A stretch of DNA of 64,000 nucleotides from Candidatus Sulfomarinibacteraceae bacterium (GCA_963733915.1 CAVTEP010000003.1:3757-67756), one strand, 5' to 3'. Counted from the stretch's first letter, positions 6,312 to 62,460 are shown. Notes: generated by a model from the letters alone, not told the origin. A program made the numbers and translations.

Positions 6312-6476
6312 GAGTTCTTGAGTTTTGAGTTTTGAGCTTTGAGTTTTGAGTTCCCGACCATCCTCCCCTACCGAAATCAGAGGGAGGGCGGGGGAATTCC
6401 GAATTCCAAATTCCGAATTCCAAATTCCTAATTCCTAATTCCTACATTCCTAATTTCTCATTCCTAGTTCGAATTG
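6312..6476. repeat. tandem-unit element E1: (GAGTTTT)x5-6, C/G-box core, (AATTCCN)x9-10
   Basis: 6312-6352 gagttcttgagttttgagttttgagctttgagttttgagtt; core 6353-6394 cctcccct..agggagggcggggg; 6395-6476 aattccgaattccaaattccgaattccaaattcctaattcctaattcct...; the two arms are not complementary to each other. Confidence 0.85.
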
Positions 6477-6489
6477 CCTGCTATCCTGC

Positions 6490-8418
6490 GTGGCCATGAT
6501 CGCGATTACCGACCTCAGCAAGGCCTACGGCGCCCAGACCCTCTTTGACGAGGTCAACCTCCAGCTCAACCCAGGCTGTCGCTATGGGCTGGTCGGCGCC
6601 AACGGCTCCGGCAAGAGCACCATCTTGAGGATCATCGCCGGCACCGAGGAGCCGAGCGGCGGCGCCGTCTCACTCCCAAAGCGCCTCCGCGTCGGCGTCC
6701 TCGAGCAGGATCATTTCCGCCTCGAGGACACTCCGATCCTCGATGTGACGATGATGGGCCACCAAGAGTTGTGGCGAGCGCTGGCGGAAAAGGACCGCAT
6801 CCTCGAGGCCTCGGCGGAGCACTTTGACGGCGAGCGCTACGCCGAGGTCGAGGACCTCGTTGTCAGTCTCGACGGTTACAGCTTCGAGGCTCGCGCCGGT
6901 GAGATCCTCGAGGGACTCGGCATCCCGAGCGAACACCACCGACGGCCGCTGGCGACCCTCTCCGGCGGTTTCAAGCTGCGCGTTCTCCTCGCCCAGGTGC
7001 TGGCCGCGGACCCCGGCTGCCTGCTCCTCGACGAACCCACCAACCACCTCGACATTCTGTCCATCAGGTGGCTCGAGAAGTTTCTCGCAACCTATCGCGG
7101 TTGCGCTCTCGTCGTCTCCCACGACCACCGATTCCTCGACAACGTCTGCACCCACATCCTCGATATCGACTACGAGACGGTCACGCCCTACACCGGCAAC
7201 TACACGGACTTCACCGCCGCCAAGGTGGCGAATCGTGAACGCAAGGAGGGCGAGATCGCGCGCCAGGAAAAGAAAATCGCCGAACATCGGGCGTTTGCCG
7301 ACCGCTTTCGCGCCAAGGCGACCAAAGCGCGCCAGGCGCAGAGCAAGCTCAAGCAGATCGACCGCATCGTCATCGAGAACCTTCCCAGATCGTCACGCCG
7401 CTACCCGGTATTCCGATTCCGCCAGCGCCGCCCGAGCGGCAAGGAAGCGCTGCGCTTGAAGGGCATCAGCAAGTCATTCGGCGACAACAAGGTGCTCTCC
7501 GACGTCGGGCTTCGGGTCCGGCGCGGCGACCGTCTCGCCATCATCGGACCCAACGGGATCGGCAAGTCGACCCTGCTCAAAATCGCGGTCGGAGACCTGC
7601 CGCCCGACGCCGGCGAGGTTCGTTGGGGCCATGAGGTCCGCGCCGGTTACTTCGCCCAGGACCACCGGCAGGCGTTCAAGGGAAGCGACGCCACCGTCGA
7701 GAGCTGGCTCGGGGCGGCCTGCGGAGGCGAAAGCATTGGCGCGGTCCGCAATCGACTCGCTCAGGTGCTGTTTTCAGGCGACGAAGTCGAGAAGCGGCTC
7801 TCCAGCCTGTCCGGCGGCGAAGCGGCGCGGCTGATATTCGCAAAGCTCGCGGTCGACCAGCCAAACGTCCTGGTCCTTGACGAGCCGACCAACCATCTCG
7901 ATCTCGAGGCCATCGAGGCCCTGGTTGCCGCCATCGACGCGTTTGACGGAACGCTGATATTCGTCTCCCATGACCGGTGGTTCGTTTCCAAGCTCGCGAC
8001 TCGCGTGCTCGAAATCACCAAAGACGGGATCAACGACTACCCGGGAACATACGACGACTACCTGGCGAGCTGCGGCGACGACCACCTCGACGCCGACGCC
8101 GTGCTGCTGCGGGTCAAACGGGAGCGCAAGGCCAAGGCGTCCACCCGGCCAACCACTGAGAGTGCCCCCGACCGCGCCGAAATCAGGCGTCGCAAGGAGC
8201 TTTCGCTGCGGCGGGATGTGGTGACCGCCGCCGTCGAAAGCGCCGAGACGAGGATCGAGGAGATCGACCAGGCGTTCTGCGCGCCCGGTTTCTTCGACGA
8301 GACCGCGGAGTCAAAGATCCGCTCGATGCAGCAGGAGCGGGACAAGCTCGCCATCGACCTCGAAAAACTCATCGCCGAGTGGGAGCAGATCGAGGCAACC
8401 CTTGAATTCGAGTGTTGA
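6490..8418 (+). CDS. ABC-F family ATPase (two ABC domains plus C-terminal coiled coil; YheS/Uup-like)
   Basis: ORF 6490..8418; GANGSGKST, LSGGFKLR, LLLDEPTNHLD, GPNGIGKST, LSGGEAAR, LVLDEPTNHLD; start GTG 6490 or ATG 6496. Confidence 0.9.
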   Translation: MAMIAITDLSKAYGAQTLFDEVNLQLNPGCRYGLVGANGSGKSTILRIIAGTEEPSGGAVSLPKRLRVGVLEQDHFRLEDTPILDVTMMGHQELWRALAEKDRILEASAEHFDGERYAEVEDLVVSLDGYSFEARAGEILEGLGIPSEHHRRPLATLSGGFKLRVLLAQVLAADPGCLLLDEPTNHLDILSIRWLEKFLATYRGCALVVSHDHRFLDNVCTHILDIDYETVTPYTGNYTDFTAAKVANRERKEGEIARQEKKIAEHRAFADRFRAKATKARQAQSKLKQIDRIVIENLPRSSRRYPVFRFRQRRPSGKEALRLKGISKSFGDNKVLSDVGLRVRRGDRLAIIGPNGIGKSTLLKIAVGDLPPDAGEVRWGHEVRAGYFAQDHRQAFKGSDATVESWLGAACGGESIGAVRNRLAQVLFSGDEVEKRLSSLSGGEAARLIFAKLAVDQPNVLVLDEPTNHLDLEAIEALVAAIDAFDGTLIFVSHDRWFVSKLATRVLEITKDGINDYPGTYDDYLASCGDDHLDADAVLLRVKRERKAKASTRPTTESAPDRAEIRRRKELSLRRDVVTAAVESAETRIEEIDQAFCAPGFFDETAESKIRSMQQERDKLAIDLEKLIAEWEQIEATLEFEC

Positions 8419-8546
8419 GTTTTGAGTGTTGAGTTTTGAGTGTTGAGTTCTGAGTTGTCCCCACCCACCCTGATCGTCCCGAGAACGGCGGAAACCCCCG
8501 AAAAACCTCCGCAACTCAAAACTGAAAACTCAAAACTCAAAACTGA
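8410..8546. repeat. tandem-unit hairpin element E2: (GAGTKTT)x7, C-rich core, (AACTSAA)x5
   Basis: 8410-8458 gagtgttgagttttgagtgttgagttttgagtgttgagttctgagttgt overlaps the ABC-F stop codon (8416-8418); core starts ccccacccaccc; 8513-8546 aactcaaaactgaaaactcaaaactcaaaactga is the reverse complement family. Confidence 0.85.
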
Positions 8547-8555
8547 CGCCGATTC

Positions 8556-9818
8556 CTATCGGCGTCTCACCGCGTGCATGGTGAAGCCGTCACCATCGAG
8601 GTGGGGCAGGATTCGGACCCCTCCGGCAGACGTCGGGATCCACGGCACGCCTGCGGGCAGGGCCGGCTCCAGGCTTTCGATCCGGAAACCCGGTGGGAGC
8701 TCGGACACGACGCCCTCGTTCTCCTCGGGCTCCACCGAGCAGGTCGCGTAGAGGAGCGCTCCGGCCGGCGCAAGGAGGTCGAGACCGCTTCCGAGCAGCC
8801 GCCGCTGCAGCTTCGCCATCTCGCTCACTGACTCCGAACGCAGCCGCCACTTGATCTCCGGGTGGCGCCGGAGAGTCCCGGTTCCGGTGCACGGCGCGTC
8901 AATCATGACGAGGTCCCACGCGCCTGAGGGAAATGGTGGGGCCGTCGCGTCGGCAGCTACGACCTCACACCCGCCCGCTCTTGCGAGCGTCCGGCGCATG
9001 AGACACACCCTGCCGAGGCTCAGGTCAGACGCCACCACCCGCTCCCAGGCGCCGAGTCTCGCCATCAGCGCCGATTTTCCACCCGGAGCGGCGCACAGAT
9101 CGACCAGCCTGGCGCTCGGAGCGGCGATTTTCCGCGCCACCTGCGCGGCCAGCTGCGAGCTCGGGTCCTGGGCGTAGGCGGCACCGGACTTGACCGATCG
9201 AATGAGGCGTGGAGTATCCGCCGGCGCCGACCAGGCCCCGGGACACCATGGGTGAGCCTGCAAGTCGACGCCGTCGTCGACCAACTCGGACCGCGCGCTC
9301 TCGTCGAAAAACCACACCCAGGTACCGGCGGGTTCCTGGGCCGCCGACATCGCCGACTCAGCGCCTTCGGCGCCGAAGTGGTCGGCCCAGCGGCGATACA
9401 GCCACTCGGGATGAGCGAGCCGAACATCAATCGTGGAATCGGTGAGCGCCTCGCGCCAGCCTCCGGTCGCCTTGCGAAGCACCGCGTTGACCATCCCTGA
9501 CGCCGACGATCGACCCAAACGCCGTACGGTGCGGACTGCCGTGTCCGTCGCCAGGGCCGGCGGCAATCCCAGCCGCATCGTTTCGACAAGCCCGAGCCGC
9601 AGCGCCGCCCGCACCTCGGCGTCCAGTCCCTCGAGTTCTCGTCGGCACAGCGGCTCCAGCACGGCATCCAAGGCCCGCAGCCAGCGCAGAGTTTCGAGGA
9701 CGCGCACGCGAGCCGCCGGCGCCCCACCTCCGGACAACAGCCTCGACGCGAAGGCGCCGTCCTCGACGCGCATGAGCATGCGCGCCGCGGTGATCCGATC
9801 AGCCGAAAGCCTCGCCAC
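8556..9818 (-). CDS. rsmB: 16S rRNA (cytosine967-C5)-methyltransferase
   Basis: ORF 8556..9818; NusB-like N-domain, DLCAAPGGKS, IDAPCTGTGTLRRHPE, YATCSVEPEENE; downstream of fmt as usual. Confidence 0.85.
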   Translation of the reverse strand: MARLSADRITAARMLMRVEDGAFASRLLSGGGAPAARVRVLETLRWLRALDAVLEPLCRRELEGLDAEVRAALRLGLVETMRLGLPPALATDTAVRTVRRLGRSSASGMVNAVLRKATGGWREALTDSTIDVRLAHPEWLYRRWADHFGAEGAESAMSAAQEPAGTWVWFFDESARSELVDDGVDLQAHPWCPGAWSAPADTPRLIRSVKSGAAYAQDPSSQLAAQVARKIAAPSARLVDLCAAPGGKSALMARLGAWERVVASDLSLGRVCLMRRTLARAGGCEVVAADATAPPFPSGAWDLVMIDAPCTGTGTLRRHPEIKWRLRSESVSEMAKLQRRLLGSGLDLLAPAGALLYATCSVEPEENEGVVSELPPGFRIESLEPALPAGVPWIPTSAGGVRILPHLDGDGFTMHAVRRR

Positions 9819-10737: not shown

Positions 10738-10763
10738 CCGCGCAGTGTACAACAGGTCTCGGT

Positions 10764-10804: not shown

Positions 10805-10862
10805 AGGTGGAAATATCTGAGAACTCGTATACATTGACTCATCTGATCGGCCGATTCGGAGC

Positions 10863-13865: not shown

Positions 13866-14370
13866 GGCTATGGGGCTATGTGGCTGTGGGGCTATGGGGC
13901 TATGGAATTGACAAGCGGCTTGGCGCCTAGGGTGAGAACGAATCGCGTTTCTGTATGAACGCGGCAAGGGCGGCGGCAGTGCGCCCGTGCAATTCACCGA
14001 GAACCGAAGAAGTCTCGTCGCTCAGGTATCCCAATCTGGACGAAAGCGCAATCAAATACCCCTACTCTCGGAGAGAGCCAAATGCGATATCCAAAAACCG
14101 ATTGAATTCAGTTTCCGTGCGGCGGCCGCATCCCTCCACGAAATTGGGCGCCACAGAAACGGCACTTCGTCGTGCCTGGCTCACCAAGCCGTAAAGTCCC
14201 TCTTTCGGGAAATTGTTCGTCGATTGATAGACCTCAATCACAAGATCATCCGCCAACTGGAAGATCTCGAGTTTCCGGTGGTCCCTCACGATTCTCCCGC
14301 TTTACCTGTTGCGCACACGGATCGGGTCCTTCATAGCCCCATAGCCCCATAGCCTCATAGCCACTTGGCC
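13866..14370. repeat. tandem-unit element E3: (GGCTATGG)x5 and (CCATAGCC)x5 inverted arms enclosing a four-helix-bundle gene
   Basis: 13866-13905 ggctatggggctatgtggctgtggggctatggggctatgg; 14331-14370 tcatagccccatagccccatagcctcatagccacttggcc; fills the gap between the stop codons of two convergent genes (13864 and 14372). Confidence 0.9.
13927..14289 (-). pseudogene. four-helix-bundle protein (23S rRNA intervening-sequence protein family, PF05635/TIGR02436-like) interrupted by one in-frame TAG
   Basis: ORF 14062..14289 MRDHRKLEIFQLADDLVIEVY...SAVSVAPNFVEGCGRRTETEFNRFLDIAFGSLRE ends at TAG 14064-14062; same frame continues GYLIALSSRLGYLSDETSSVLGELHGRTAAALAAFIQKRDSFSP to TAG 13929-13927, total about 120 codons as normal for the family. 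Confidence 0.8.
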
Positions 14371-16387: not shown

Positions 16388-16501
16388 GGCTCCTCCTTCG
16401 AGCTGGGATTGCCAAGCGACGCAGTGCGGCAATCCATCCCGGGGAGTATAGCCAGGAAATTCTGATATTCGGACGACGGCGGAACAGAGTATTTCGGCGG
16501 A

Positions 16502-18892: not shown

Positions 18893-19023
18893 GAAACGTT
18901 AGAACGTTAAAACGTTCAACGTTCCCGCCCACCCCCGAGAGTTGGGTTGCTCATTCTTGTCTCGATATCACGGAACCTTCAAGAGTGGAACGTTCTGACC
19001 TTCAACGTTCTAAGGTTCTAACG
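18893..19023. repeat. tandem-unit element E4: (NAACGTTN) arms with CCCGCCCACCCCC core
   Basis: 18893-18923 gaaacgttagaacgttaaaacgttcaacgtt; C-box 18924-18936; right arm 18972-19023 ggaaccttcaagagtggaacgttctgaccttcaacgttctaaggttctaacg. Confidence 0.8.
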
Positions 19024-19613: not shown

Positions 19614-19620
19614 AAAAGCA

Positions 19621-19694
19621 GAGGGGAAAAGGGGAAGAGGGGAAAAGGGGACCCACCAACCCCTCTTCTCCTTTTCTCCTTTTCTCCTTTTCCC
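19621..19694. repeat. tandem-unit hairpin element E5: (GGGGAARA)x3-4, CCCACCAA, (CTCCTTTT)x4
   Basis: gaggggaaaaggggaagaggggaaaagggga cccaccaa cccctcttctccttttctccttttctccttttccc; begins 7 nt after the stop codon. Confidence 0.85.
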
Positions 19695-20763: not shown

Positions 20764-20808
20764 GAGGCTATGAGCTATGGGCCATGAGCTATGGGTGATG
20801 AAGCTACG
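20764..20808. repeat. single tandem-unit arm E6 (CTATGRG heptamers), no partner arm seen
   Basis: gaggctatgagctatgggccatgagctatgggtgatgaagctacg, 15 nt after hemH stop; same unit family as E3 and E11. Confidence 0.7.
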
Positions 20809-23885: not shown

Positions 23886-24008
23886 ACGATTCAACGTTAA
23901 TACGTTAAAACGTTCCCACCCCTCCTCCCCCGAGATCCTCGGCCATCGACAGGGTTGGGCGGGCGAAACGTTCTAACGTTAAACGTTCCAACATTCTAAC
24001 GATTCAAA
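23884..24008. repeat. tandem-unit hairpin element E7: AACGTT-type arms, C-box, G-box; bounded by 10-nt direct repeat
   Basis: 23884-23914 gaacgattcaacgttaatacgttaaaacgtt; C-box 23915-23931 cccacccctcctccccc; G-box 23952-23965 gggttgggcgggcg; right arm 23966-24008; aacgattcaa at 23885-23894 and 23998-24007; left end overlaps TGA 23883-23885. Confidence 0.85.
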
Positions 24009-26533: not shown

Positions 26534-26669
26534 CAACCGTTTGAACGTTGCAACATTAGAACGTTAGAACGTTAGAACGTTCCTAATCTCCCCCAGGGTG
26601 TACATCGAGAATTGACTGGGGTGGATGGACGAAACGTTTTAACGTTGAACGTTCCAACGTGTAACGTCG
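26534..26669. repeat. tandem-unit hairpin element E8: AACGTT-type arms around ctcccccag...ctggggtgg core
   Basis: 26534-26583 caaccgtttgaacgttgcaacattagaacgttagaacgttagaacgttcc; right arm 26631-26669 gaaacgttttaacgttgaacgttccaacgtgtaacgtcg; ends 5 nt before the stop of the convergent gene. Confidence 0.85.
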
Positions 26670-32463: not shown

Positions 32464-32646
32464 AATAGGAATTAGGAATGCCCCACCCGTTAGAAGGCGT
32501 GAGGGGAGCGTAATTCTCAATCCCGATTCACCGCCCTTCCTCCGTTGGGAGGGCGGGTGGAAAAATCCAAAATTGAAATTGAGAACTGAGAATTCGATGC
32601 AATGGGTGGGCGGGATTCCTAATTCCTAATTCCTAATGCGAATTCG
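32463..32646. repeat. nested tandem-unit element E9 (outer GGAATTAGG/CCTAATTCC arms, inner AATTCTCA-type arms, two C-box/G-box pairs)
   Basis: outer arm 32463-32480, C-box ccccaccc 32481-32488, inner C-box 32530-32543, loop gtt, inner G-box gggagggcgggtgg 32547-32560, outer G-box gggtgggcggg 32604-32614, outer arm attcctaattcctaattcctaatgc 32615-32639; starts in the TAG stop 32461-32463. Confidence 0.85.
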
Positions 32647-36653: not shown

Positions 36654-36690
36654 GTTTCCCGCGGTCGCCCGCCGGGCGACCGCGGGAAAC
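36654..36690 (+). promoter_or_regulatory. 37-nt perfect palindrome between nifU and nifS (attenuator or processing hairpin candidate)
   Basis: gtttcccgcggtcgcccg c cgggcgaccgcgggaaac; no U-run after it; AGGAGG and GTG start of nifS follow. Confidence 0.6.
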
Positions 36691-36718
36691 TAGGTGATGA
36701 GGATCAGCAGGAGGCTTC

Positions 36719-44675: not shown

Positions 44676-44854
44676 GCCCACCCTACCACCCAGGCTATGA
44701 GGCTATGAGGCTATGAGGGGCCAGCCACCTATCCATTGGCTGCAAGCGAGAGGTGTGCCCGATAGTCCCATAGCCAGGCCGCGACTCGTCACGTCGAACC
44801 CCCGGGGCGAAAACGGAAGCGGCCGATCATAGCCCTATAGCCCCAAAGCCCCTG
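44676..44854. repeat. tandem-unit element E11 (C-box, (GGCTATGA)x3 ... (YCATAGCC)x3)
   Basis: gcccaccctaccaccc 44676-44691; ggctatgaggctatgaggctatgagggg 44693-44720; about 105-nt centre; tcatagccctatagccccaaagcccctg 44827-44854 abutting the stop of the next ORF. Confidence 0.8.
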
Positions 44855-48039: not shown

Positions 48040-48071
48040 CGTTAAACGTTTGAACGTTAAAACCTTAGAAC
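48040..48071. repeat. single AACGTT-type tandem-unit arm E12
   Basis: cgttaaacgtttgaacgttaaaaccttagaac, 4 nt after the thiolase stop; no core or partner arm. Confidence 0.65.
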
Positions 48072-49542: not shown

Positions 49543-49673
49543 CCCACCACCCGTCTGGATAGAGGGCACCGGGCACGGAGTTCAGGTCCCACCCGCCCAG
49601 CATCTCTTGGTCCTGCACCCTCTGTCCTGCGCCCTGTACCCTGCATCCTGTATCCGGGTGTATCGGTGGGCGG
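49543..49673. repeat. tandem-unit hairpin element E13 filling the whole stop-to-stop gap
   Basis: cccaccacccg 49543-49553; left arm ggatagagggcaccgggcacggagttcaggtcc 49557-49589; cacccgccc 49590-49598; right arm ggtcctgcaccctctgtcctgcgccctgtaccctgcatcctgtatcc 49609-49655; cggtgggcgg 49664-49673. Confidence 0.8.
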
Positions 49674-52584: not shown

Positions 52585-52758
52585 CAAGCCCGAGCCCGTT
52601 ACCGTTGCCGAAGATTGGGGTTCTTCTCAGGGATCGACCACTACGAAATAGAGCGCAATCTGGTACACGTCGAGCTTCTCGAAGTCGAAGAACATGAAAA
52701 TTTCCTTCTCAGGAGGCGTATGGTATCGGTAACGGCAACGGTAACGGGCTCGGGCTTG
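52585..52758. repeat. element E14: perfect 26-nt inverted repeat built of hexamer units, enclosing a four-helix-bundle gene stub
   Basis: caagcccgagcccgttaccgttgccg 52585-52610 and cggcaacggtaacgggctcgggcttg 52733-52758 (exact reverse complements), extra cggtaa unit 52727-52732. Confidence 0.9.
52627..52695 (-). pseudogene. 22-codon N-terminal stub of a four-helix-bundle (PF05635-like) gene
   Basis: GAAGGAAA then ATG at 52695; MFFDFEKLDVYQIALYFVVVDP stop; matches family N-terminal pattern F-x-x-L-x-V-W/Y-Q-x-A; stop lies 16 nt from the left arm. Confidence 0.55.
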
Positions 52759-53839: not shown

Positions 53840-54414
53840 TGAACGGCATCACTCCGTCGCTTGCCGGCCACCTCTTGATCGCAATGCCGAATCTCGCCGA
53901 CCCCAACTTCTGGCAGTCGGTGGTGCTTCTCGGTGTCCACTCCGATCAGGAAGGAGCGTTCGGCCTGATCATCAACCGTGTACTCGATATCGATATGCAC
54001 GATGTTTTGAAGGAGCTCGGAGAAAACGACGAGATATCGGAGCTTCCGGAGGTCTTTGCGGGTGGCCCGGTGCAGCCGAGCCACGGATTCGTGCTTTTCG
54101 AGCGCGGTCAACACGAGGTTGCCGACGACGAGATAGCAATTGCAGACTCGATCGTCGTGTCAGGGAGCACCGCCACACTGGCTCGACTCGCCAGCGGTGC
54201 AGACACCAACCGTTTCGTCCTGTTGTTGGGCTACTCGGGTTGGTACCCGGGCCAACTCGAGCGCGAAATCGAAGAGAACTCCTGGGTTGTCGCTCCCCTT
54301 GATACTTCAATTGTCTTCGAGGTGCCTGTCGAGGAACGATGGTCGGCGGCACTGAGATCGATCGGCATCGAGCCCGGGACCCTTGTCGACACCGGTTCCA
54401 TGGAACCGAGCTGA
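53839..54414 (+). CDS. YqgE/AlgH family protein (UPF0301)
   Basis: ORF 53839..54414; LLIAMPNLADPNFWQSVVLL..HSDQEGAFGLIINR, LLGYSGWYPGQLERE. Confidence 0.85.
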   Translation: MNGITPSLAGHLLIAMPNLADPNFWQSVVLLGVHSDQEGAFGLIINRVLDIDMHDVLKELGENDEISELPEVFAGGPVQPSHGFVLFERGQHEVADDEIAIADSIVVSGSTATLARLASGADTNRFVLLLGYSGWYPGQLEREIEENSWVVAPLDTSIVFEVPVEERWSAALRSIGIEPGTLVDTGSMEPS

Positions 54415-54665
54415 GCAATTCTCACCGCGTCGCTGGGTGATACCTGAACACGCGGGCGTTGGAAAACGGCCAGCTCATAACCAGACCCGCAACTCTACTC
54501 AGGGGCCGAAGCGAAGAGTGCGAGACGTCGTGCGATGTGGCGATTTCGCGGTGTGAGCGAGGGAGGCTTACTCGGAGCGTACGTCACACCGAGCGAACAC
54601 AAGAAAGCGCCGCAGCGTGCGGCGTACCGCGCTCTGCAGCCGGCCCCTGAGGAAAGATGCGGGTC

Positions 54666-54693
54666 AAGAAAAGCCCGGCCGGTTGGCCGGGCT
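54666..54693 (-). terminator. intrinsic terminator candidate (minus strand)
   Basis: agcccggcc ggtt ggccgggct with aagaaaa on the plus strand, i.e. stem-loop followed by UUUUCUU on the minus strand. Confidence 0.6.
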
Positions 54694-54756
54694 GATATTC
54701 GAATCGGGAGGGCTGGTTCCGCCAAAACGGTAGGATCAAAACGATGGGATGATCTT

Positions 54757-54784
54757 GGCTGGCCTTAAAAGGTTGGCCTATTTT
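54757..54784 (+). terminator. weak intrinsic terminator candidate (plus strand)
   Basis: ggctggcc ttaaaa ggttggcc tatttt; stem needs three G-U pairs. Confidence 0.35.
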
Positions 54785-54960
54785 GAGGTAGGTCTCAAGG
54801 TGGTCAGCTTCCCCAGGCCCCTCCCTTTCTCAATTGATGGCTCATCGTAGCATGTGCTTGTCTCGTTGTCTAGCGTTAATCTCGACAATACATGGATTTG
54901 TGCCGATGAGTTCAGAAAGGTCACCCGACGTCGCCGAAAGGCCAGGGGCCCAGAACGCGT

Positions 54961-55887
54961 TCATTTCGTCCGGATCGCGGACAATTCGATCGTGACCTCG
55001 CGGGCCTCTCCCGGTTCGAGCTCGACGGTTCGGCTCAGGTTGGCATAACCGTCGGCGCGCACCTCGATCGAGTGGGTTCCCGCCGAGGTTGCAAGAGGGC
55101 CTTCCATCCGGTTCAGCTCTCTACCGGTGGCGACAAACACCCCGTCGAGCAAAACCGAAGCCTGCTCGGGGCTCACCCGAATCCGTAGCGAGGCGCTCCG
55201 CTTCTCAGGAACCGCCACGCTGACTGCGTTGTCCGATCCCAGGTCGGGTCTCAGGCTCGGATTCGGTGCTCCCCGAGCCGGCTTGGCGGGCGGGATCAAT
55301 GCCCCCCCGACGGCAAGTGGGCTGAAGACCCTCTGAAACGGCTTGCCCTTGCCGTAGGCCTCTTGGGTCTGGTTTTCGGCCTTGCCCTTTGCTCGATCGA
55401 GCCTGTGTTTCAGGTCAAAGCGGCAGCCGGCCGCCGCCTCGAGATCGATGGCAATGGATTGATAGCCCTTCAGCCTGAGCTCCAGATTGTAGCTGCCGGG
55501 CTCCAGGTACAGGTAATCGGGCTTGCCATCGAGGTACCTTGCGCGGCCGACAAACCGATCGTCGAGATAGACCTCGGCGTCCTTGGGGCGGACATCGATG
55601 GCAACCACCGCCAAATCGGGTCCTGGCGGCGTCTCCTCGGAAGGCGGCGGACCGGGCCAGTATGTTCCCACTGGAATGCAGGGCAGGAGTACGGTGCTCG
55701 GGTCGGACGCGATGTCAGAGTGGACAGGGTTCGCAGCGCCCGCTGCAGCTGCGGCTTGTTGGCCGGGTGCCACCGTCGGCGCGCCGGTCCCGGGCGACTG
55801 AGCCGCGGCAGCGCCTACCGCTCCCAGGGTCACGCTCAAGGCAAGGGCGACGACGCCTCGTCTCGGGAACCAACGGTTCGTCCCCAT
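54961..55887 (-). CDS. secreted PEGA-domain protein (two PEGA repeats)
   Basis: ORF 54961..55944 trimmed to MGTNRWFPRRGVVALALSV behind GGGAGGTG; DVRPKDAEVYLDDRFVG..YNLELRLKGYQS and RVSPEQASVLLDGVFV..HSIEVRADGYAN. Confidence 0.75.
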   Translation of the reverse strand: MGTNRWFPRRGVVALALSVTLGAVGAAAAQSPGTGAPTVAPGQQAAAAAGAANPVHSDIASDPSTVLLPCIPVGTYWPGPPPSEETPPGPDLAVVAIDVRPKDAEVYLDDRFVGRARYLDGKPDYLYLEPGSYNLELRLKGYQSIAIDLEAAAGCRFDLKHRLDRAKGKAENQTQEAYGKGKPFQRVFSPLAVGGALIPPAKPARGAPNPSLRPDLGSDNAVSVAVPEKRSASLRIRVSPEQASVLLDGVFVATGRELNRMEGPLATSAGTHSIEVRADGYANLSRTVELEPGEAREVTIELSAIRTK

Positions 55888-56813
55888 GATCCACCTCCCG
55901 TTGACCGGGAATGCAATCCCTCTGCCAGGCCCTCCAGATAGCAAGAATCCAGAAAACCCCGGTAAATGCTGGGGGGAATGACACCGTCGACCTTCTCGCC
56001 GAGCTCGACCGCGAGCCCGAGCAGCGCGCGCCGCAAGCGTCGGAGGGGATTTCGCCGGAGGGCACGGCTGACCCCAAGGAAGTTTTCGAGTTGCGGGTGG
56101 ATACCGGCAAAGATCGCGGCCGAGATCCCGGATGTCCTCTGTCGGCTACAGAACGTCCGCGGCCGAATACAGTGACGGTGCAGGGTCCTGGCGCGCGGTT
56201 GGTAACGAAGGGTGAGGCCGTTGGCGGCGGCCCGGTACGAAAATTCGATGTCTTCCCACGCCGCCGCCGGAAAATCCTCACGAAATCCCCCCAATTCGAG
56301 GAGAACACGGCGTGGCACCGACACATTCGATGTGTAGAAAAAATTGAAAGGAACGGCACGTGGGTCGTCGATCAACTGGTAGCCGAACTGTGCGCCTTGC
56401 TCGTTGATGAAGCGCAGGAATGGGCTTCGGCGATCGTTGACAAACGAGGTGTATCCGATCACCGCCAGAAGAGTCGTTCCGCCAAAGAGCCGATGTTCCT
56501 CGAGGTGGCTGGCCAGCCAGCCCGGCTGCGGTTCGGTGTCGTCACCGAGAAACAACACGAGGTCGCCTGAAGCGGCCTCGACTCCCTGATTTCGTGCCCG
56601 CGCCGGTCCGGAGTTGGCCTGGCGAAGCACCGTCAGGCCAGGCGGCCCGGTCTGCGAGCCGAGCCACTCCCAGGTGCCGTCAGACGAACCATCGTCAACC
56701 ACCACCGTCTCGAGTTCGGTTCCATTTGGACACGCTTGAGATCGAACCGCCAACAGCACCCGCTGCAAATCCTGCAGCCGGTTGTAGGTCGGGATGACCA
56801 GGCTCGCCCGCAT
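55836..56813 (-). CDS. family 2 glycosyltransferase
   Basis: ORF 55836..56813; SLVIPTYNR, VVVDDGSSDGT, FLGDD; its 3' end overlaps the PEGA gene start by 52 nt. Confidence 0.85.
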   Translation of the reverse strand: MRASLVIPTYNRLQDLQRVLLAVRSQACPNGTELETVVVDDGSSDGTWEWLGSQTGPPGLTVLRQANSGPARARNQGVEAASGDLVLFLGDDTEPQPGWLASHLEEHRLFGGTTLLAVIGYTSFVNDRRSPFLRFINEQGAQFGYQLIDDPRAVPFNFFYTSNVSVPRRVLLELGGFREDFPAAAWEDIEFSYRAAANGLTLRYQPRARTLHRHCIRPRTFCSRQRTSGISAAIFAGIHPQLENFLGVSRALRRNPLRRLRRALLGLAVELGEKVDGVIPPSIYRGFLDSCYLEGLAEGLHSRSTGGGSWGRTVGSRDEASSPLP

Positions 56814-57970
56814 CAGACCACCAAACGCGGTATCGCTGGCGACAGGCGGGCCAAGAGCTCATAGTTGATCGTGTCACTCAGTGACGCCAGCTCCTCGACC
56901 GAGATGTGTTCATCCCCTTGCCGACCGATCAGAACCGCCTCGTCGCCAATGCTGACATCAGGAATGTCGGTAATATCCGCCATCAGGATATTCATACAAA
57001 CCCGACCCACGACGGGCGCCGAACGACCGTTGATGAGAACCCGCGCCCGGTTACCGAGTACTCGCACATATCCGTCGGCGTATCCGACCGGAATCACCGC
57101 CAATAGACTGTCTCTTCGCGCGGTCCATGTCCTGCCGTATCCGACCGAAGCGTTCCTCTCAACGATCTGCAATTGTCCGACAATCGCCTTCCACGAGAGT
57201 ACCGGTCGAAGCTGCACTCTACCGTCCGAATGCTCAAGAGTCCATGACAATCGAGTTTCCCGAGATGGCCAATGCCCGTACATTGAAATACCGACCCGCA
57301 CGAGCGAGAAATCAGTCTCGCGAAACAGCAAAGCCGAGGCCGAGCATGACGCGTGAATGAACGGCGGTAACTCTCCGAGTTCCCGCCGCGCCACGTCGAC
57401 CGCCTCGCGAAATCGATTCATTTGGAGGCGCGCAAAATCATGCTCGATGGTGTCCTCGATATTGGCATAATGCGAGGCAATTCCGACGACTTCTACCGAA
57501 GCCTTCGAAGCGGCCGTAACGACCTTCGGCAATTCGGCAGTCGATACTCCCTGCCGCTTGGTTCCGATATCCACTTTGATGTGCACCGGAAGCGCAACGC
57601 CGGTCTTTTCCCGATATCTTCTCACCCATTCCAGGGATTCCGCCGCGGACACCATCAGATGAACATCGGAATCGAGGCTATGAAAGCCTGACGGCGGCAC
57701 GTAGCCCATGACGAGAATCGGTCCTTCGAGCCCGATCTCGCGGAGTTGACGCGCTTCATCGGCGCTGTGAACCCCGAGCCATGCCGCATGACGCACTGCT
57801 CGCGTCGCGACCTGCGCCAAGCCGTGCCCGTATGCGTTGGCTTTGACCACCGCCAGAAGAGCCGCGTCGGCGTTGATGATCCTCCGGAATAATCCTAAAT
57901 TATGATCTAAAGCATCGCCCTCAATCTCGATCCATTGTGCCGGGCGCGGGTCCGCCATCTCCATCGCCAA
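56813..57970 (-). CDS. alr: alanine racemase
   Basis: ORF 56813..57970; AVVKANAYGHG PLP-lysine motif; GYGRTW; VGRVCMN. Confidence 0.9.
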   Translation of the reverse strand: MAMEMADPRPAQWIEIEGDALDHNLGLFRRIINADAALLAVVKANAYGHGLAQVATRAVRHAAWLGVHSADEARQLREIGLEGPILVMGYVPPSGFHSLDSDVHLMVSAAESLEWVRRYREKTGVALPVHIKVDIGTKRQGVSTAELPKVVTAASKASVEVVGIASHYANIEDTIEHDFARLQMNRFREAVDVARRELGELPPFIHASCSASALLFRETDFSLVRVGISMYGHWPSRETRLSWTLEHSDGRVQLRPVLSWKAIVGQLQIVERNASVGYGRTWTARRDSLLAVIPVGYADGYVRVLGNRARVLINGRSAPVVGRVCMNILMADITDIPDVSIGDEAVLIGRQGDEHISVEELASLSDTINYELLARLSPAIPRLVV

Positions 57971-58264
57971 AGTCTATCGCGGAAAACGCCTTCCCGTCAT
58001 GATCGTAAGAAACGTTTTGTCTGCCTGAATATTGTGGCGAAGTTTCATCGCGACGCTGGAATTCACGTTTGTTCATCGCAGCACTGCAGCCATGGTTCAC
58101 ACGCTCGCCTCTTATGGTTGCGCATTGCATCATGAATATTGTGGTCAGATTTCGCGCTATTTGCTGACTGTAAATGTTCTTTCCAGTCGCGGCGGCGGAC
58201 CAGACTGCTGCACTTTTTGATAAAATGACATTTGATTTATTTCGAGATTTTGCAGAAATTTCCC

Positions 58265-58293
58265 TTGACTCTCGATATTCTAAATCGTATTCT
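58265..58293 (+). promoter_or_regulatory. sigma70-like promoter candidate TTGACT - 17 nt - TATTCT
   Basis: 58265-58270 ttgact, 58288-58293 tattct, followed by GGAGGTG (58309-58315) and ATG 58320. Confidence 0.45.
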
Positions 58294-58319
58294 GACCTTA
58301 GACTCTTTGGAGGTGACCT

Positions 58320-58706
58320 ATGGCGTTCGAGAAGTTCATTCCGCCGCAAACCTCCGGTGTGCGGCCACGGGCCACCATCCGGCCGAGCGGTTTGATCTCA
58401 TTCGATTCGGCTACGGTAGAGGCGTTTGGTCTGAAATCTGCGTCGTACGCGGTGTTGTATTTCGACAAAACGCGAAAAATCGTTGGCGTGCAGATTTCGA
58501 AGAATGCCAACGAAGATGGTTCGTTGAAGCTGTCGCGTAGACGGCGGTCCGTGAGTCTTAAAGCGCCGCAGTTTTTCGACCTCTACGGGCTCTCATTTGA
58601 TGAAGCACAGCGATTCGACGTCGGGCTGGATCCCGATTCCAAAATGCTGACAATCAGCCTGAAATCGGTCCAGCGCCGCCGCGGGCGGCGTCCCAAGACG
58701 ACCTGA
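58320..58706 (+). CDS. orphan hypothetical protein with basic C-terminal tail (QRRRGRRPKTT)
   Basis: ORF 58320..58706; own promoter and strong RBS; sits in an AT-richer islet; no family recognised. Confidence 0.55.
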   Translation: MAFEKFIPPQTSGVRPRATIRPSGLISFDSATVEAFGLKSASYAVLYFDKTRKIVGVQISKNANEDGSLKLSRRRRSVSLKAPQFFDLYGLSFDEAQRFDVGLDPDSKMLTISLKSVQRRRGRRPKTT

Positions 58707-58734
58707 GGAAATTCGATTCTGCGGCTTGGCCGAG

Positions 58735-59532
58735 TCACGGTTTCGGCCAACCGTCACCGACACCGAAAAGAACCCGAAAGCCGGCCGTGGAGCTCAGAGC
58801 GACCTCCTCGACCGGCTTTTTCCATTCCTCTGCCAGGCGGCGACCGATGAGGGGTACGTACGCCGGTTCGTTCTCTCTGCCCCGATGGGGAACCGGAGCA
58901 AGGTACGGGCTATCCGTTTCCACCAGGACGCTTTCGGGTTCGAGCACCGCCACGATCGCGCGGATATTTTCAGAATTCTTGAATGTCACCATTCCTGAAA
59001 TACCGACCCAAAGGCCCATCTCCACCACCTGTCGGGCTGCCTCCACGCCCTCTGTGAAGGAGTGACAAACTCCTCGCAGGCGGCCCTTGCGTTCTTCCAA
59101 CATCGAAATGAGGTCAGGCCACGATTCCCGATTGTGCAGCACGACCGGCAAGTCCATCGCGATCGCGAGATCGAGCTGCCAGGCAAGCGCGGCCAACTGG
59201 TCCTCACGCGGCGAGTTCAGGTAGTGGTAGTCGAGTCCGATCTCGCCCACTGCAACCACGGTCGCCCGCTCGCACGCCTTTTCGATGAGGCGTTTCATCG
59301 ACGCATCGAGCGAGTCGGCCTCGTGGGGATGAACGCCCGCCGCCGCCACGACCCGATTCGGATGATCTTCCGCAAGGCCGAGGGTGAGGTCGATATCGTC
59401 AGGGCCGGTGGCTGGCGTAAGGATTCCGGCGACTCCGGCACCCGCAGCGCGATCCAGGACGCCGGCAACCTCGTGCTCATCGAACATGCTGAGATGGGCG
59501 TGCGAGTCGATCCAGATCATTGTCTCGGTCAT
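58735..59532 (-). CDS. tatD: TatD-family metal-dependent hydrolase (DNase)
   Basis: ORF 58735..59532; WIDSHAHL, GEIGLDYHY, VLHNRE, HSFTEG, ETDSPYL. Confidence 0.9.
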   Translation of the reverse strand: MTETMIWIDSHAHLSMFDEHEVAGVLDRAAGAGVAGILTPATGPDDIDLTLGLAEDHPNRVVAAAGVHPHEADSLDASMKRLIEKACERATVVAVGEIGLDYHYLNSPREDQLAALAWQLDLAIAMDLPVVLHNRESWPDLISMLEERKGRLRGVCHSFTEGVEAARQVVEMGLWVGISGMVTFKNSENIRAIVAVLEPESVLVETDSPYLAPVPHRGRENEPAYVPLIGRRLAEEWKKPVEEVALSSTAGFRVLFGVGDGWPKP

Positions 59533-59598
59533 GACGGGAGTCTACAGCATCGTTAGAACGTTAAAACGTTGAACGTTAGAACGTTTGGCTTATCCGGG

Positions 59599-59695
59599 AT
59601 GGCGAGAAATCGAGGTTCGGAAGGCCCGGTTGGCCCGCATTATTCATGAGGTCTCGTCGCCCTCGCGACGAAACCCGGTGAGATATGCGGTTTAG
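59599..59695 (+). pseudogene. N-terminal stub of a four-helix-bundle (PF05635-like) gene
   Basis: ATG 59599 followed by one extra G, then frame 59600-59695 reads WREIEVRKARLARIIHEVSSPSRRNPVRYAV stop; resembles family N-terminus (x-D/E-L/I-E-V-W-x-K-A-x-x-L-A-x-x-I-Y); stops where the next repeat block begins. Confidence 0.45.
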
Positions 59696-60037
59696 CCGCT
59701 GCCGCTGTCCCTGCCCGGTCCCTACCCGCCGTTGCAACGGATCGGACCACCGGTATCGGAGACGGGTGGTCCCCTTTTCCCCTTTTCTCCTTTTCTCCTT
59801 TCCCCCCCTTCCTCATCAGGGAGGGCGGGTGAAACGTTCGGTTCATCCGGAATTTGATGGGATCGAGTTTTGGAAGTTCCGATCAGCTAACCCAGCGACA
59901 GGAACAGCGACACACCGCAGGGGCAGTGAACAGCGGCCGAGGCAGCGACCGCGGCAGCGACCGGGGCAGTGAGCAGGGGTCGTGACGACGGCATGTTCAA
60001 GCCGGGTCGTTCAGTGCGAGAGGTAGCCGGTGGGCAC

Positions 60038-60093
60038 CCGATGTCAAGGGCAAGCCGGGCCGAGGGCCCGGTGCGATGCACCCTTGACATCGG
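60038..60093. repeat. 13-nt perfect inverted repeat with inner hairpin, upstream of the intact four-helix-bundle gene
   Basis: ccgatgtcaaggg (60038-60050) ... ccgggcc gag ggcccgg (60055-60071) ... cccttgacatcgg (60081-60093); right half contains TTGACA. Confidence 0.75.
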
Positions 60094-60118
60094 CCGCCTC
60101 ACCGGCTCGAGGAAGGGC

Positions 60119-60493
60119 ATGAACGACCCGGCGTTGAACATGTCCGACGCGCGTACGAACCCCAACCTCGTTGCCCACTCGAAGGCCCTTGACGCGGCTG
60201 GCATTGCGATCAAGCTCGTGATGAGGGTTCCAGCCCCATTGAAATCGATCGCCGATCAGGTGATCCGGTCGGCAAGCTCGGTCCCGGCCAACCTGGCGGA
60301 GGGGCACGGCCGGGCCGGAAGAGACCGGCAACACTTCTGGAGGATCGCCTACGGCTCAGCCAAGGAGGTCGACAGCCACCTTCGCCTCCTGGTTCAGGCT
60401 GGTGCCGTTGATGGACGAAGCGCCACGACCGCACTCGATACCTTCGATCAAGTCCGCGCCATGACCTGGCGCTTGCTCAACCCAAACACCTGA
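60119..60493 (+). CDS. intact four-helix-bundle protein (23S rRNA intervening-sequence protein / Avd family, PF05635/TIGR02436-like)
   Basis: frame of ORF 59969..60493, ATG 60119 (or 60140); ...SIADQVIRSASSVPANLAEGHGRAGRDRQHFWRIAYGSAKEVDSHLRLL... matches the family core Q-x-x-R-A/S-x-x-S-x-x-x-N-x-A-E-G ... A-x-G-S-x-x-E. Confidence 0.8.
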   Translation: MNDPALNMSDARTNPNLVAHSKALDAAGIAIKLVMRVPAPLKSIADQVIRSASSVPANLAEGHGRAGRDRQHFWRIAYGSAKEVDSHLRLLVQAGAVDGRSATTALDTFDQVRAMTWRLLNPNT

Positions 60494-60716
60494 TCGGCGT
60501 TCTCCGCGCCGGTCCGGCCGGGAGTTGTCGCGGTCAACTGTCCCTGACGCGGTCCACGGCCGCTGCCGCCGTCCCTGACCGCCGCCCCTGACCGCCCGTC
60601 CAACGGATGCGACCAACTCCGTCGGGGACGGGTGGGTGGAAAATCCGAATTCCGAAATTGAAGAGTTGACACCCCACGCAATTCCGGAAGACCCAAACGT
60701 TCCAACGTACAAACGT

Positions 60717-61442
60717 TTAACGACTCTCTTGCCGGGCGACCAACATTGCGCCGCCGACCACGGCGGCAGTCTCGGATCGGAGTACGTGATCGCCGAGCCG
60801 AAGCCGCGGCCAACCGTAACGGACGAAGAGCTGTTGCTCCACTGCGGTGAACCCGCCTTCAGGACCAACCGCCAACAGTCGGCCGGCGTCCGCGGGAATG
60901 TCTGCAACTGCTCCACCGTCGTGATCGGCGACAACCCCGCCTCCTAGCGGCGACTCCCGTTCGATCAGCTCCTCCAGAGACGCGATGTCCGCGACCTCCA
61001 TTGCCCATGCACGGTGGCACTGCTTGAGCGCCTGCATCGCGATGCGGCGCCAGTGGTCGACTCGAGTCTCGCGCCCGCGGCGAAGGGCCTGGGCGAGCTC
61101 GGCATCGATCGGCAGCAGGCGCCGCACCCCGATCTCGACCAGTTTTTGAACGGCCCAGTCCATCGGCTGGTTGCCGACCATGGCGAGAGCGACCGCTACG
61201 CCGTCGGCGAGCGGCTTTGGCTCCCGCCGCACCGATAAGATCTCGACCTCGACCTTGCCCCCGCCAACGGCGACCAGCTTTGAATCGGCGACCGCGCCGA
61301 GACCATCAATGAGAACAACCTCGTCACCTCGGCGACGCCGCAGTGGACCTGTGAGATGGTGGGCTTCAGCGGGATCGAGCGTCAAAGTGCGTCCGACTTC
61401 GAGGCTCTGAGCCGGTGCAAGTAGCCACGGTGGAGACTTCAT
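60717..61442 (-). CDS. rsmE: 16S rRNA (uracil1498-N3)-methyltransferase
   Basis: ORF 60717..61478 trimmed to MKSPPWLL; PUA-like N domain, GPEGGFT, LRLGDHVLRSETA; its last codons and stop lie inside the AACGTT arm. Confidence 0.8.
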   Translation of the reverse strand: MKSPPWLLAPAQSLEVGRTLTLDPAEAHHLTGPLRRRRGDEVVLIDGLGAVADSKLVAVGGGKVEVEILSVRREPKPLADGVAVALAMVGNQPMDWAVQKLVEIGVRRLLPIDAELAQALRRGRETRVDHWRRIAMQALKQCHRAWAMEVADIASLEELIERESPLGGGVVADHDGGAVADIPADAGRLLAVGPEGGFTAVEQQLFVRYGWPRLRLGDHVLRSETAAVVGGAMLVARQESR

Positions 61443-62329
61443 GGCGCCCGCTCCCTCATCACTGTCAGGCTCAGCCACTCACCGAGCTGCCGTGTCGAGC
61501 ACACCACCAGACCGGCCGGAGCGAGCTCTCTGGACACGGCTTCGAGTTCGGAGCCGAGGAGCCCAGAAAACACCGCGGTCCCCCCCGGCACCAACAACCG
61601 CCGGATATCACCGACCAGGGGCAGGCTCTTGGCGGCGATCATGTTGCAGAGCACGACGTCGAAGGCGGCGTTTCCGACACAGCCCACTGTCCCCAGCAGA
61701 AATCGCACACGGGGATCCCAATCCTGTTGGCGGGCGCTCTGGCGCGCGACCCAGATCGCTGCCGGGTCGAAATCGAAGGCGACCACCCACCCCGCACCGA
61801 GAATGTCCGCCGCCAGGGCCAGGATTCCGGAGCCGGTACCAACATCGAGGACGCTGCCCCCATTGATTTCGAGCTCTTCGAGGGCCAGAAGAACGCCTTG
61901 TGTGGACTCGTGGCTACCGCTGCCAAATGCCGTCCTGGGTTCCACCGCGAGCCGGCGCCGGTTTTCGGGCGCGGGGGTCGGTCGATCGGGATGGGGATCG
62001 ATCCACCACCGTTTTCCGACTGCAAAGGGCCGTGCGCTTGCCCGGTAGCCCTCAAGCCAGTCCTCGGTCTCCTGCCGTACGACGGTGAGGTCGACTGCGC
62101 CGCTGCCGGCCAGGGCCAGAAGCAGCGAATCCGCAGATTCCGTTTCGTGCCCCTGCAGGTAGATCGAAGCCCACACCGTGTCTCTCGACTGTTCGCAGAT
62201 TTCGACTCCCAGCACCGGCCAGGGCGCAATCAGACCGGGGAGCTCCTCCTCGAGTTCTGTCGGGATTCGGCAGCGGAGATTCAGGTAGGCATCCTTTGGA
62301 GTCGAGCCCGCCATATTTCTTGGTTTCAC
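61439..62329 (-). CDS. prmA: ribosomal protein L11 methyltransferase
   Basis: ORF 61439..62329; AFGSGSHESTQ, VLDVGTGSGILA, NMIA. Confidence 0.9.
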   Translation of the reverse strand: MKPRNMAGSTPKDAYLNLRCRIPTELEEELPGLIAPWPVLGVEICEQSRDTVWASIYLQGHETESADSLLLALAGSGAVDLTVVRQETEDWLEGYRASARPFAVGKRWWIDPHPDRPTPAPENRRRLAVEPRTAFGSGSHESTQGVLLALEELEINGGSVLDVGTGSGILALAADILGAGWVVAFDFDPAAIWVARQSARQQDWDPRVRFLLGTVGCVGNAAFDVVLCNMIAAKSLPLVGDIRRLLVPGGTAVFSGLLGSELEAVSRELAPAGLVVCSTRQLGEWLSLTVMRERAP

Positions 62330-62370
62330 CTCGGTCGACCTGAAGTATCGTAGCCGTTCCGGTCGAACAG

Positions 62371-62460
62371 GTTAAGAGTCAAGAGTTAAGGGTCAAGACG
62401 TGCTGCTATTCAAGAAGAGGACATGGGATGGCTTCACTCTTGACTCTTGACTCTTCACAG
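62371..62460. repeat. tandem-unit hairpin element E16: (YAAGAGT)x4 / (GACTCTT)x3-4
   Basis: gttaagagtcaagagttaagggtcaagacg 62371-62400; 31-nt centre without C/G box; cttcactcttgactcttgactcttcacag 62432-62460. Confidence 0.85.

Follow-up and report, generated by a model that had tools for sequence, protein, structure and literature searches.

Inverted arrays of short tandem units between the genes of a Sulfomarinibacteraceae genome and their association with four-helix-bundle genes

What are the arrays of very short tandem repeats that recur between the genes of an uncultured sediment bacterium of the Candidatus Sulfomarinibacteraceae, and why do so many of them come as facing pairs? We addressed this question in a stretch of 64,000 nt from one such genome (GCA_963733915.1, CAVTEP010000003.1:3757-67756; hereafter the window), in which a first-pass annotation had placed 16 elements built of short tandem units. 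All 16 loci, designated here by their first coordinate, were read, and the arrays are present where they had been placed. The anatomy of the elements, their location, their folding potential, their conservation throughout the lineage with turnover of the unit sequence, and a general association with genes for four-helix-bundle (4HB) proteins are directly supported by the results reported below. As to what the loci are, we tentatively prefer a reading that we consider possible: co-transcribed hairpin elements resembling the intervening sequences (IVSs) of rRNA, members of a widespread class that carries 4HB genes, which would be cut by RNase III and whose arms would be homogenised by slippage.

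The arrays were counted over the entire window as Tandem Repeats Finder (TRF) rows whose period is 7 or 8 and whose copy number reaches 2.8 or more. Such rows number 23, with 2.8-10.7 copies each, against a mean of 0.95 and a maximum of 3 in 20 block-shuffled windows; the elements as a whole occur at about one per 4 kb. Genes predicted from codon usage cover 82% of the window and 22 of the 23 arrays fall outside them, which bears out the intergenic siting first described. The arrays that TRF finds inside genes are GC-rich and have periods mostly of 6, 9 or 15, as expected of coding repeats. Overall, the period-7/8 arrays sit at gene 3′ ends: the distance from the stop codon to the start of the array is 0-46 nt, and the stop codon itself is overlapped at loci 8410, 23886 and 32463. 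Elements occupy 6 of the 8 gaps between convergent genes and most of those between tandem genes, and none of the 5 clean divergent gaps. The scan of about 38 open reading frames (ORFs) of the window, including most of those that flank elements, returned ordinary housekeeping or unassigned genes, with no transposase, REP-associated tyrosine transposase (RAYT; REP, repetitive extragenic palindrome) or reverse transcriptase among them. An Rfam scan of the entire window at the gathering threshold gave 0 matches, a scan for tRNA and tmRNA found none in it, and there is no rRNA either: the elements sit between protein-coding genes.

At 12 of the 16 loci (8410, 13866, 18893, 19621, 23884, 26534, 32463, 35529, 44676, 52585, 59551 with its outer arms, and 62371) one array faces a second made of reverse-complement units, at a spacing that ranges from 9 nt to about 1.1 kb. 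The other loci are unpaired or weak: 6312 combines two unrelated arrays, 20764 and 48040 have one array each, and the member at 49543 is weak. The first-pass description of one shared architecture with a variable unit sequence therefore fits the two-armed loci and their many unit families, and is overstated for these four. The same division is seen in folding. Compared with dinucleotide shuffles, the two-armed elements reach z = -2.6 to -8 on at least one strand, with helices of 29-65 pairs, whereas the one-armed, mismatched or weak elements fold no better than the shuffles; since only two-armed elements beat the shuffles, folding beyond chance can be claimed for the two-armed majority only. 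At least eight unit families, mostly AT-rich and of both 7 and 8 nt, are present in the window. Families do recur at separate loci, as had been noted (AACGTT at five, GGCTATGR at three and CCCCTTTT at two), and so do GAGTTTT and AATTCCN (three loci each). The number of copies per arm peaks at 4-5, with a median of 4.4 (~31 nt) and a sharp fall at 6, in the clade and in metagenomes alike. We also considered that units might be chosen for stop codons in all three frames; this was rejected, as 29% of the clade arrays against 57% of unit-shuffled ones, and 67% against 55% in metagenomes, have this property.

About 9 of the 16 loci have in common an inner clamp, CCCNCCCNCCC...GGGNGGGNGGG. Strict GGGNGGGNGGG matches number 8 against 1.8 expected, all 8 lying within elements, and in the window and its relatives the polarity array-CCC...GGG-array is found in 33 cases against 10. 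The clamp is constant across unit families and its spacers are not conserved. In sequence, only the clamp (GGG[AT]GGG[CT]GGG and its complement) is conserved; spacers and arms vary.

Comparison with related genomes was anchored on the ABC-F gene of the window (6490-8418), whose best relatives, at 75-81% identity, come from metagenome-assembled genomes (MAGs) labelled Thermoanaerobaculia or Ca. Sulfomarinibacter(aceae), Acidobacteriota. Judged by these matches, the host is a member of the Acidobacteriota, class Thermoanaerobaculia, close to Ca. Sulfomarinibacteraceae. The window and 17 related loci (349 kb) hold 122 period-7/8 arrays (79 of period 7 and 43 of period 8), or 0.35/kb. For the 63 other ABC-F loci (1.16 Mb), among them Ca. 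Multivorans and further Thermoanaerobaculia of 57-65% identity, the density is 0.027/kb. 4HB genes are distributed in the same manner, with six in the window and the 17 related loci versus one in the 63 others. In 16 related MAGs from different projects the arrays lie at orthologous intergenic positions, often with different units, and this agreement among independent assemblies excludes an assembly artefact. Nearly every relative has arrays at the orthologous sites. For instance, one array adjoins the box TGCTATCCT upstream of ABC-F and is made of AATTCCT, AAATCCG or CATTCCT units depending on the relative, and another starts at the ABC-F stop codon with GAGTTTT, GAATTCG, ATTTCGG, AACGTTNN or AATTTTG.

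Most copies in the clade are empty, commonly with the C-rich/G-rich inner clamp; among the 16 window elements, 2 enclose a gene of the PF05635/TIGR02436 family and the other 14 are empty. A search of the other empty interiors with hidden Markov models (HMMs) gave no further 4HB fragments. The first gene (about 13930-14301, minus strand) lies in the element at 13866-14362 and has an in-frame stop at 14062-14064. Intact orthologues, 68-72% identical, are found at the same locus in the relatives L013, L006 and L004, between arms made of GGGCTATG, ATGGGCT, or ATGAGGCA-ATGGGGCG paired with GCCTCATT; from the window (GGCTATGG/CCATAGCC) to L006 (ATGAGGCA-ATGGGGCG/GCCTCATT) both arms have changed together. 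The second gene (60119-60493, plus strand) is intact, encodes 124 aa and has a 73% identical orthologue in L012. The window family is homologous to Xanthomonas XCC0516 (PDB 2GSC; E 2e-20), and 2GSC has five chains per deposited entry. Furthermore, a 4HB gene stands between inverted AGCCATC arrays at a distant Terriglobales locus (L061).

The link to 4HB genes, which the first-pass annotation had also pointed out, extends well beyond this lineage. A metagenome scan with the 4HB alignment yielded 80 unrelated loci, 42-65% identical and of 35-71% GC. Comparing the left flank of each gene with the reverse complement of the right one (score of at least 28) gave inverted flanks at 52 of the 67 testable loci (about 78%), versus 1 of 93 displaced controls. 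TRF arrays are present on both sides of the gene at 41 metagenomic loci, and 103 of the 116 flanking arrays have period 7, typical arm units being AGCNNTC, GGCTATG, AGGCTGA, AAGACTC and TAGCTNC. The arm starts a median of 5.5 nt after the upstream stop codon. In the 5′ arm of 4HB elements, G-rich or purine-rich polarity is weakly favoured (31 vs 17, p = 0.06, and 35 vs 19, p = 0.04). Arrays located more than 300 nt from a 4HB gene have the same unit as its arms in 15 of 30 cases, compared with 10% in controls. Cultured bacteria provide further examples, such as Nostoc punctiforme pNPUN01, where the 4HB gene has GGGTGTA arms, and Gemmatirosa, where the arms are GGAGGGC. Heptamer arrays accompany 4HB genes also on plasmids of Picosynechococcus (L166; cas10|4HB|cmr3) and Pseudanabaena (L164; cas6|4HB|cas4), which suggests that 4HB elements between cas genes ride inside operons. 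The association of heptamer arrays with 4HB genes is therefore general across metagenomes and cultured bacteria. Our literature search, of incomplete coverage, found no paper stating that PF05635 genes are generally associated with heptamer arrays in inverted pairs, and the link has apparently not been stated before.

How do these elements relate to known ones? The short tandemly repeated repetitive (STRR) sequences and the REPs or bacterial interspersed mosaic elements (BIMEs), both named in the first-pass annotation, are reasonable nearest neighbours. STRR sequences are defined by specific units, found in heterocystous cyanobacteria, and their usual description is that of direct arrays. As in Calothrix and Nostoc, the window has tandem heptamers in intergenic DNA, but its host is acidobacterial and its units are not canonical STRR units. 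A REP, known from Proteobacteria, is a single conserved, imperfect palindrome of 20-40 nt that recurs genome-wide, with a cognate RAYT (TnpA-REP) transposase. Like REPs, BIMEs and REP doublets forming hairpins (REPINs), the window elements are extragenic palindromic repeats at gene 3′ ends, dispersed, often paired and with a GC-rich core (here the clamp); unlike REPs and BIMEs, they have arms that are tandem arrays of variable sequence, and the scanned window genes include no RAYT. More distantly related are the TAACTGA direct repeats of Beggiatoaceae and the heptamers that occur in Nostoc promoters.

The further claim that the combination of features had not been described was too strong, because three published systems share much of it. 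In high-GC Xanthomonas, 89-93% of the GGGAATC heptamer arrays are intergenic; the arrays follow the upstream ORF at a distance of about 28 nt, include 70-75 inverted pairs and show depletion in divergent gaps (Rehm et al. 2015, PMC4692102). The resemblance to the window covers the high-GC host, the position after upstream ORFs, the scarcity in divergent gaps, the inverted pairs able to form stem-loops, the occupation of the same sites in related species with variation in length and sequence, and the absence of an assigned function. The Xanthomonas arrays differ in having one G-rich unit, read as G-quadruplex forming, with no clamp and no reported 4HB link (PMC4692102), whereas the window has its eight or more mostly AT-rich families of two lengths. 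Geobacter metallireducens has three classes of paired inverted sites, annotated as binding sites for global regulators, with 3-5 tandem 7-9-mers in a single genome (GTTGCTYN, TCTCCGTS and MTYCTGA), some of them inside operons, e.g., nifD-nifK, and class 1 has IS110 and IS481 insertions alongside (Aklujkar et al. 2009, PMC2700814). Here too there are several classes per genome, paired on opposite strands at variable distance, 3′ of genes or in operons; however, the Geobacter sites were read as IHF/HU sites, have no described clamp or 4HB cargo and belong to another phylum (PMC2700814). At least three tandem units of 7-9 nt, opposite-strand pairs and intergenic 3′-end siting, the traits of the Xanthomonas and Geobacter repeats, are all found in the window.

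The third system is the IVS of Coxiella burnetii 23S rRNA, a hairpin excised by RNase III, in which the ORF of the 4HB protein S23p comes after 2-3 tandem GACAGAT heptamers and the stem is cut by RNase III at the first heptamer repeat (Warrier et al. 2016, PMC4990558). According to the same paper, the XCC0516/2GSC protein is a homopentameric toroid. As in the S23p IVSs of Coxiella burnetii and Leptospira (PMC4990558), inverted flanks in the window form a long stem around a 4HB ORF, tandem heptamers (of variable copy number in Coxiella) adjoin this ORF, and the proteins belong to the same PF05635/TIGR02436 family. The IVS is carried within its host transcript and, by analogy, the window elements would be as well. 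They differ from the S23p IVSs in that they lie in intergenic regions of protein genes and not in a 23S rRNA helix, are mostly empty, fall into many unit families and have an inner GC clamp. What is new here is the lineage, the very high element density, the many unit families and the conserved clamp.

For the window elements, we infer that they are transcribed, that RNase III cuts them and how their units are kept alike. Because it lies directly behind a stop codon, an element would be transcribed together with its host gene, and its arms would then pair as an imperfect duplex of ~30 bp in which any register is tolerated. RNase III might cut this duplex as it does in the rRNA IVSs, so that the interior, 4HB mRNA or nothing, would be released and the neighbouring cistrons uncoupled. 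Finally, replication slippage within an arm and template switching between arms could keep the units alike and at the same time let their sequence drift.

Several results weigh against this scheme. None of 45 arm pairs showed register-specific complementarity when the unit order was permuted (a test with low power for three-unit arms), and the mismatches of 55 4HB stems display no G:U bias (sense 77 vs antisense 81), half of the mismatches being transversions. Pairing is therefore not demonstrably selected at the nucleotide level. Given the missing wobble bias and the absence of mirrored unit order, the complementarity of the arms holds at the level of the unit consensus, as a register-free zipper, with no evidence for nucleotide-level selection on pairing. 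Moreover, one-armed modules are kept across genera, e.g., the G-clamp with its AAWTCCN array before the ABC-F promoter. Selection on structure, one of two possibilities raised in the first-pass annotation, is not borne out. The two arms of locus 6312 are not complementary to each other, and at 16388-16501 an orthologous array, present as GAGTATAGCCGGGAG-array in eight relatives, has decayed to remnants in the window. The clamp, for its part, is left without explanation by an RNase III hairpin model. Co-orientation of 4HB genes with their neighbours is found in 36 of 45 cases (upstream gene) and 27 of 36; co-orientation in bacteria is usually roughly 70%, and the 80% seen for 4HB genes is close enough to this baseline that it does not discriminate.

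The main rival, which we regard as doubtful, is that the arrays are multi-site DNA or RNA platforms for an oligomeric protein, the hairpin being incidental; the putative binder would most attractively be a pentameric 4HB protein, with one 7-nt unit per subunit, or a nucleoid or regulatory protein. Conservation of the arms at the unit-consensus level only agrees with such a platform, as do the peak at 4-5 units with its drop at 6, set beside the pentameric Xanthomonas homologue 2GSC, and the one-armed arrays conserved beside -10 boxes. A 4HB pentamer as the binder would account for arms of 4-5 units and for the conservation of one-armed modules. The units that extra arrays share with the nearby 4HB gene and the co-occurrence of arrays and 4HB genes by lineage point in the same direction, and regulator binding has been proposed for the Geobacter pairs by Aklujkar et al. 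(PMC2700814). However, at least eight unit families face only two 4HB genes in the window, the arms of these two genes, made of GGCTATGG or GC-rich 12-mers, differ from the common units, and a correlation between unit and protein is also expected from simple co-inheritance. A more speculative extension, rather unlikely in our view, makes the Avd/S23p-like 4HB pentamers of PF05635 candidate trans-acting partners that create, maintain or mobilise heptamer arrays, again with one subunit per 7-nt unit. Co-location, co-occurrence by lineage, shared units near 4HB genes and the copy-number peak may be taken in this sense; if it were true, rRNA IVSs, cyanobacterial STRR sequences, the Xanthomonas and Geobacter repeats and the empty hairpins of the window would form one superfamily of transcript hitch-hikers.

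Three further explanations are less likely. That the arrays are functionless by-products of slippage and quasi-palindrome template switching, expanding in unconstrained intergenic DNA up to a stop codon or promoter, would account for arrays lying flush against stop codons and -10 boxes, for unit turnover and occasional array loss, and for the lack of both nucleotide-level covariation and wobble bias; polymerase slippage has also been held responsible for the excess of heptamers among bacterial simple sequence repeats (cited in PMC4692102). We nevertheless hold this distinctly unlikely, as the same sites stay occupied over genus-level divergence, array length is capped at 4-5 units where slippage gives a geometric tail, array density differs 13-fold between related lineages, the clamp is enriched above expectation, and the inverted flanks are strongly tied to one protein family. 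Transcription termination, either by bidirectional intrinsic terminators or with the elements acting as 3′-end stabilisers of the REP/BIME type, fits the 3′-end siting, the enrichment in convergent gaps, the absence from divergent ones and the strong hairpins, and at 8545-8566 (minus strand) a GC hairpin has a GAGTTTT array as its U-tract. It is nonetheless improbable: terminator-like sites in the window number 18 against 12.9 +/- 2.9 expected, which is no excess, and only the one at 8545-8566 touches an element; no consistent U-tract follows the stems, whose T-rich arms are often 5′; elsewhere the window has ordinary GC hairpins that lack arrays (36655-36692 and about 54683-54712); elements lie within clusters that resemble operons (dnaJ-prmA-rsmE in the window, nifD-nifK of Geobacter, cas genes of cyanobacteria); and some enclose a whole gene. 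Finally, the elements could be related to transposable elements of the miniature inverted-repeat type (MITEs), with tandem arrays as terminal inverted repeats and a transposase encoded elsewhere (cf. Drosophila Foldback). Unit families that recur at distances of tens of kb and in different species, the nested and composite copies, and a ~75-nt direct repeat that brackets a 4HB insertion speak for mobility of this kind, which is still very improbable, since target-site duplications do not flank the elements, the scanned window genes lack any of the enzymes sought, arrays persist at the orthologous sites of nearly all relatives without presence/absence polymorphism, and one locus has inherited its 4HB cargo vertically.

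Tandem heptamers (STRR sequences, the Xanthomonas and Geobacter repeats) and the S23p/4HB proteins of rRNA IVSs have both gone without an assigned function for decades and were treated as unrelated curiosities in the papers searched; the window holds both at high density. This makes two open questions concrete, namely whether 4HB pentamers bind heptamer arrays and whether RNase III cuts such stems in mRNA. For annotation, the elements are of value in that they mark gene 3′ ends, adjoin promoters and drive rapid intergenic change.

The individual loci are as follows. At 6312-6352, 19 nt past the stop (6293) of the upstream plus-strand gene and just after GTATACTCCGGAG, there is an array of 5.7 GAGTTTT copies; a clamp core, CCCGACCATCCTCCCC ... 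GGGAGGGCGGGGG, occupies 6353-6394, and 10.7 copies of AATTCCN, not complementary to the GAGTTTT array, fill 6395-6470. The position of the latter array (AAWTCCN) is kept in most relatives, and it adjoins the extended -10 box TGCTATCCT (6479-6487). This box stands 8 nt before the ABC-F ATG and is conserved here and at almost all 17 related loci. The ABC-F start is probably ATG 6496 and not GTG 6490, and the gene looks leaderless. Between the convergent ABC-F and rsmB genes, the two-armed element at 8410-8544 (z -5.7) has 6.7 copies of GAGTKTT on the left, overlapping the ABC-F stop, 4.6 copies of AAAACTS on the right and a C-clamp, CCCCACCCACCC, at 8459-8470. The GC hairpin at 8545-8566 overlaps the rsmB stop and is the sole element-associated lookalike of a classical intrinsic terminator. 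Of the array-free hairpins, the one at 36655-36692 reads TTTCCCGCGGTCGCC...GGCGACCGCGGGAAA and the one at about 54683-54712 AAAAGCCCGGCC-GGTT-GGCCGGGCT; this genome thus also uses conventional terminator-like structures.

The arms of the minus-strand 4HB element at 13866-14362 (z -7.4) consist of 5 copies of GGCTATGG (13866-13905) and 3.9 of CCATAGCC (14332-14362). At the position of the in-frame stop in its gene the orthologues have Leu (SLRELGYL), and the stop could mark a pseudogene or a read-through site or result from a sequencing error. Three elements are AACGTTNN-armed: 18894-19023, with the C-clamp CCCGCCCACCC at 18924-18934 and a degenerate right arm; 23886-24008, with clamps CCCACCCCTCCTCCCCC and GGGTTGGGCGGGCG and the upstream gene's stop codon within the first unit; and 26538-26667, between convergent genes, with a weak clamp (CTCCCCCAGGG / CTGGGGTGGATGG) and z of -4 / -5.6. 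The compact hairpin at 19620-19692, between the rubrerythrin and ferrochelatase genes, has arms of AGGGGAAA (3.8 copies) and CCTTTTCT (3.9 copies) around a 9-nt loop, without a separate clamp (z -4.8 on the plus strand). Two single arrays do not fold significantly: 3.9 copies of GCTATGR at 20766-20795, without a partner arm, and an AACGTT-family array at 48040-48071, 4 nt past a stop codon.

A nested element at 32463-32637 (z -5.8) has outer AGGAATT and AATTCCT arms, clamps GCCCCACCC and GGGTGGGCGGG (32604-32614), and inside them a clamp hairpin, CCGCCCTTCCTCC/GGAGGGCGGG (about 32530-32560), followed by a degenerate array. The short-armed element at 35529-35617 belongs to the GAGTTCTT / AAGAACTC family and has clamps GCCCCCCGCCCC and GGGTGGGCGGGGG (35578-35588). 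At 44692-44852, arms of AGGCTATG (3.4 copies) and CATAGCCC (3.1 copies) enclose a 110-nt interior, without clamp or detectable 4HB remnant. The weak member at 49543-49673 fills the gap between convergent genes with a CCTGNNC-type array (49612-49655) and clamps CCCACCCGCCC (49588-49598) and GGTGGGCGG (z -0.8 / -2.1). The inverted-arm element at 52585-52758 (z -8) has 28-nt arms of hexamer period (CGGTAA/TTACCG) and a 110-nt interior. A minus-strand ORF in it, MFFDFEKLDVYQ..., was considered as a 4HB N-terminus; this is unproven, as the ORF has no Pfam match at E <= 10 and is missed by the 4HB HMM, its sole BLASTP match to 4HB covering 10 residues (pairwise E = 0.011).

The largest element, 59551-60722, is a composite of at least four modules. 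Its outer AACGTT arms (59551-59604 and 60677-60722) are 78% complementary over 46 nt. Within them lie the ~75-nt direct repeat (59695-59769 and 60559-60635, 74-91% identical), an array of 4.6 TCCCCTTT copies (59770-59806) followed by a clamp hairpin (59807-59832), the GC-rich 12-mer arms that enclose the 4HB gene (59931-59969 and 60554-60577), and a G-clamp with AAATCCG-like units (60626-60660). A palindrome, GGCACCCGATGTCAAGGG / CCCTTGACATCGGCCGCC (60033-60098), is found immediately upstream of the point where the hb1-type 4HB gene starts and is kept in L012 (right of 2067); it holds two facing TTGACA hexamers. The last two-armed element (62371-62455; z -5.8 / -5.4), in the gap between the minus-strand genes dnaJ and prmA, has 3.6 copies of AAGAGTC and 3.4 of GACTCTT and is without clamp.

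Some further observations concern the relatives and other genes of the window. Read on the opposite strand, the conserved motif GAGTATAGCCGGGAG is a promoter-like box, CTCCCGGCTATACT, for the minus-strand Fe-S/CCG gene; in L006-L008, L011, L013, L044 and L056 (about 19.4-21.2 kb) the array follows it directly, with a genome-specific unit. Two other dispersed families, the REP-like GCGTGCGGCGGAGGTGCC, in both orientations, and CCGCAGATCACGCAGAT, occur among the relatives L004, L006, L008, L010 and L044 (around ABC-F) and L007, L012 and L013, with no copy in the window. The region 54000-59500 has a lower GC content (57-60%) and encodes a PEGA-domain protein, a family-2 glycosyltransferase and an alanine racemase, the last two of which were missed by the codon-usage gene calls. 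Finally, 24114-26492 encodes a peptidase M28 protein with a C-terminal S-layer-homology (SLH) domain.

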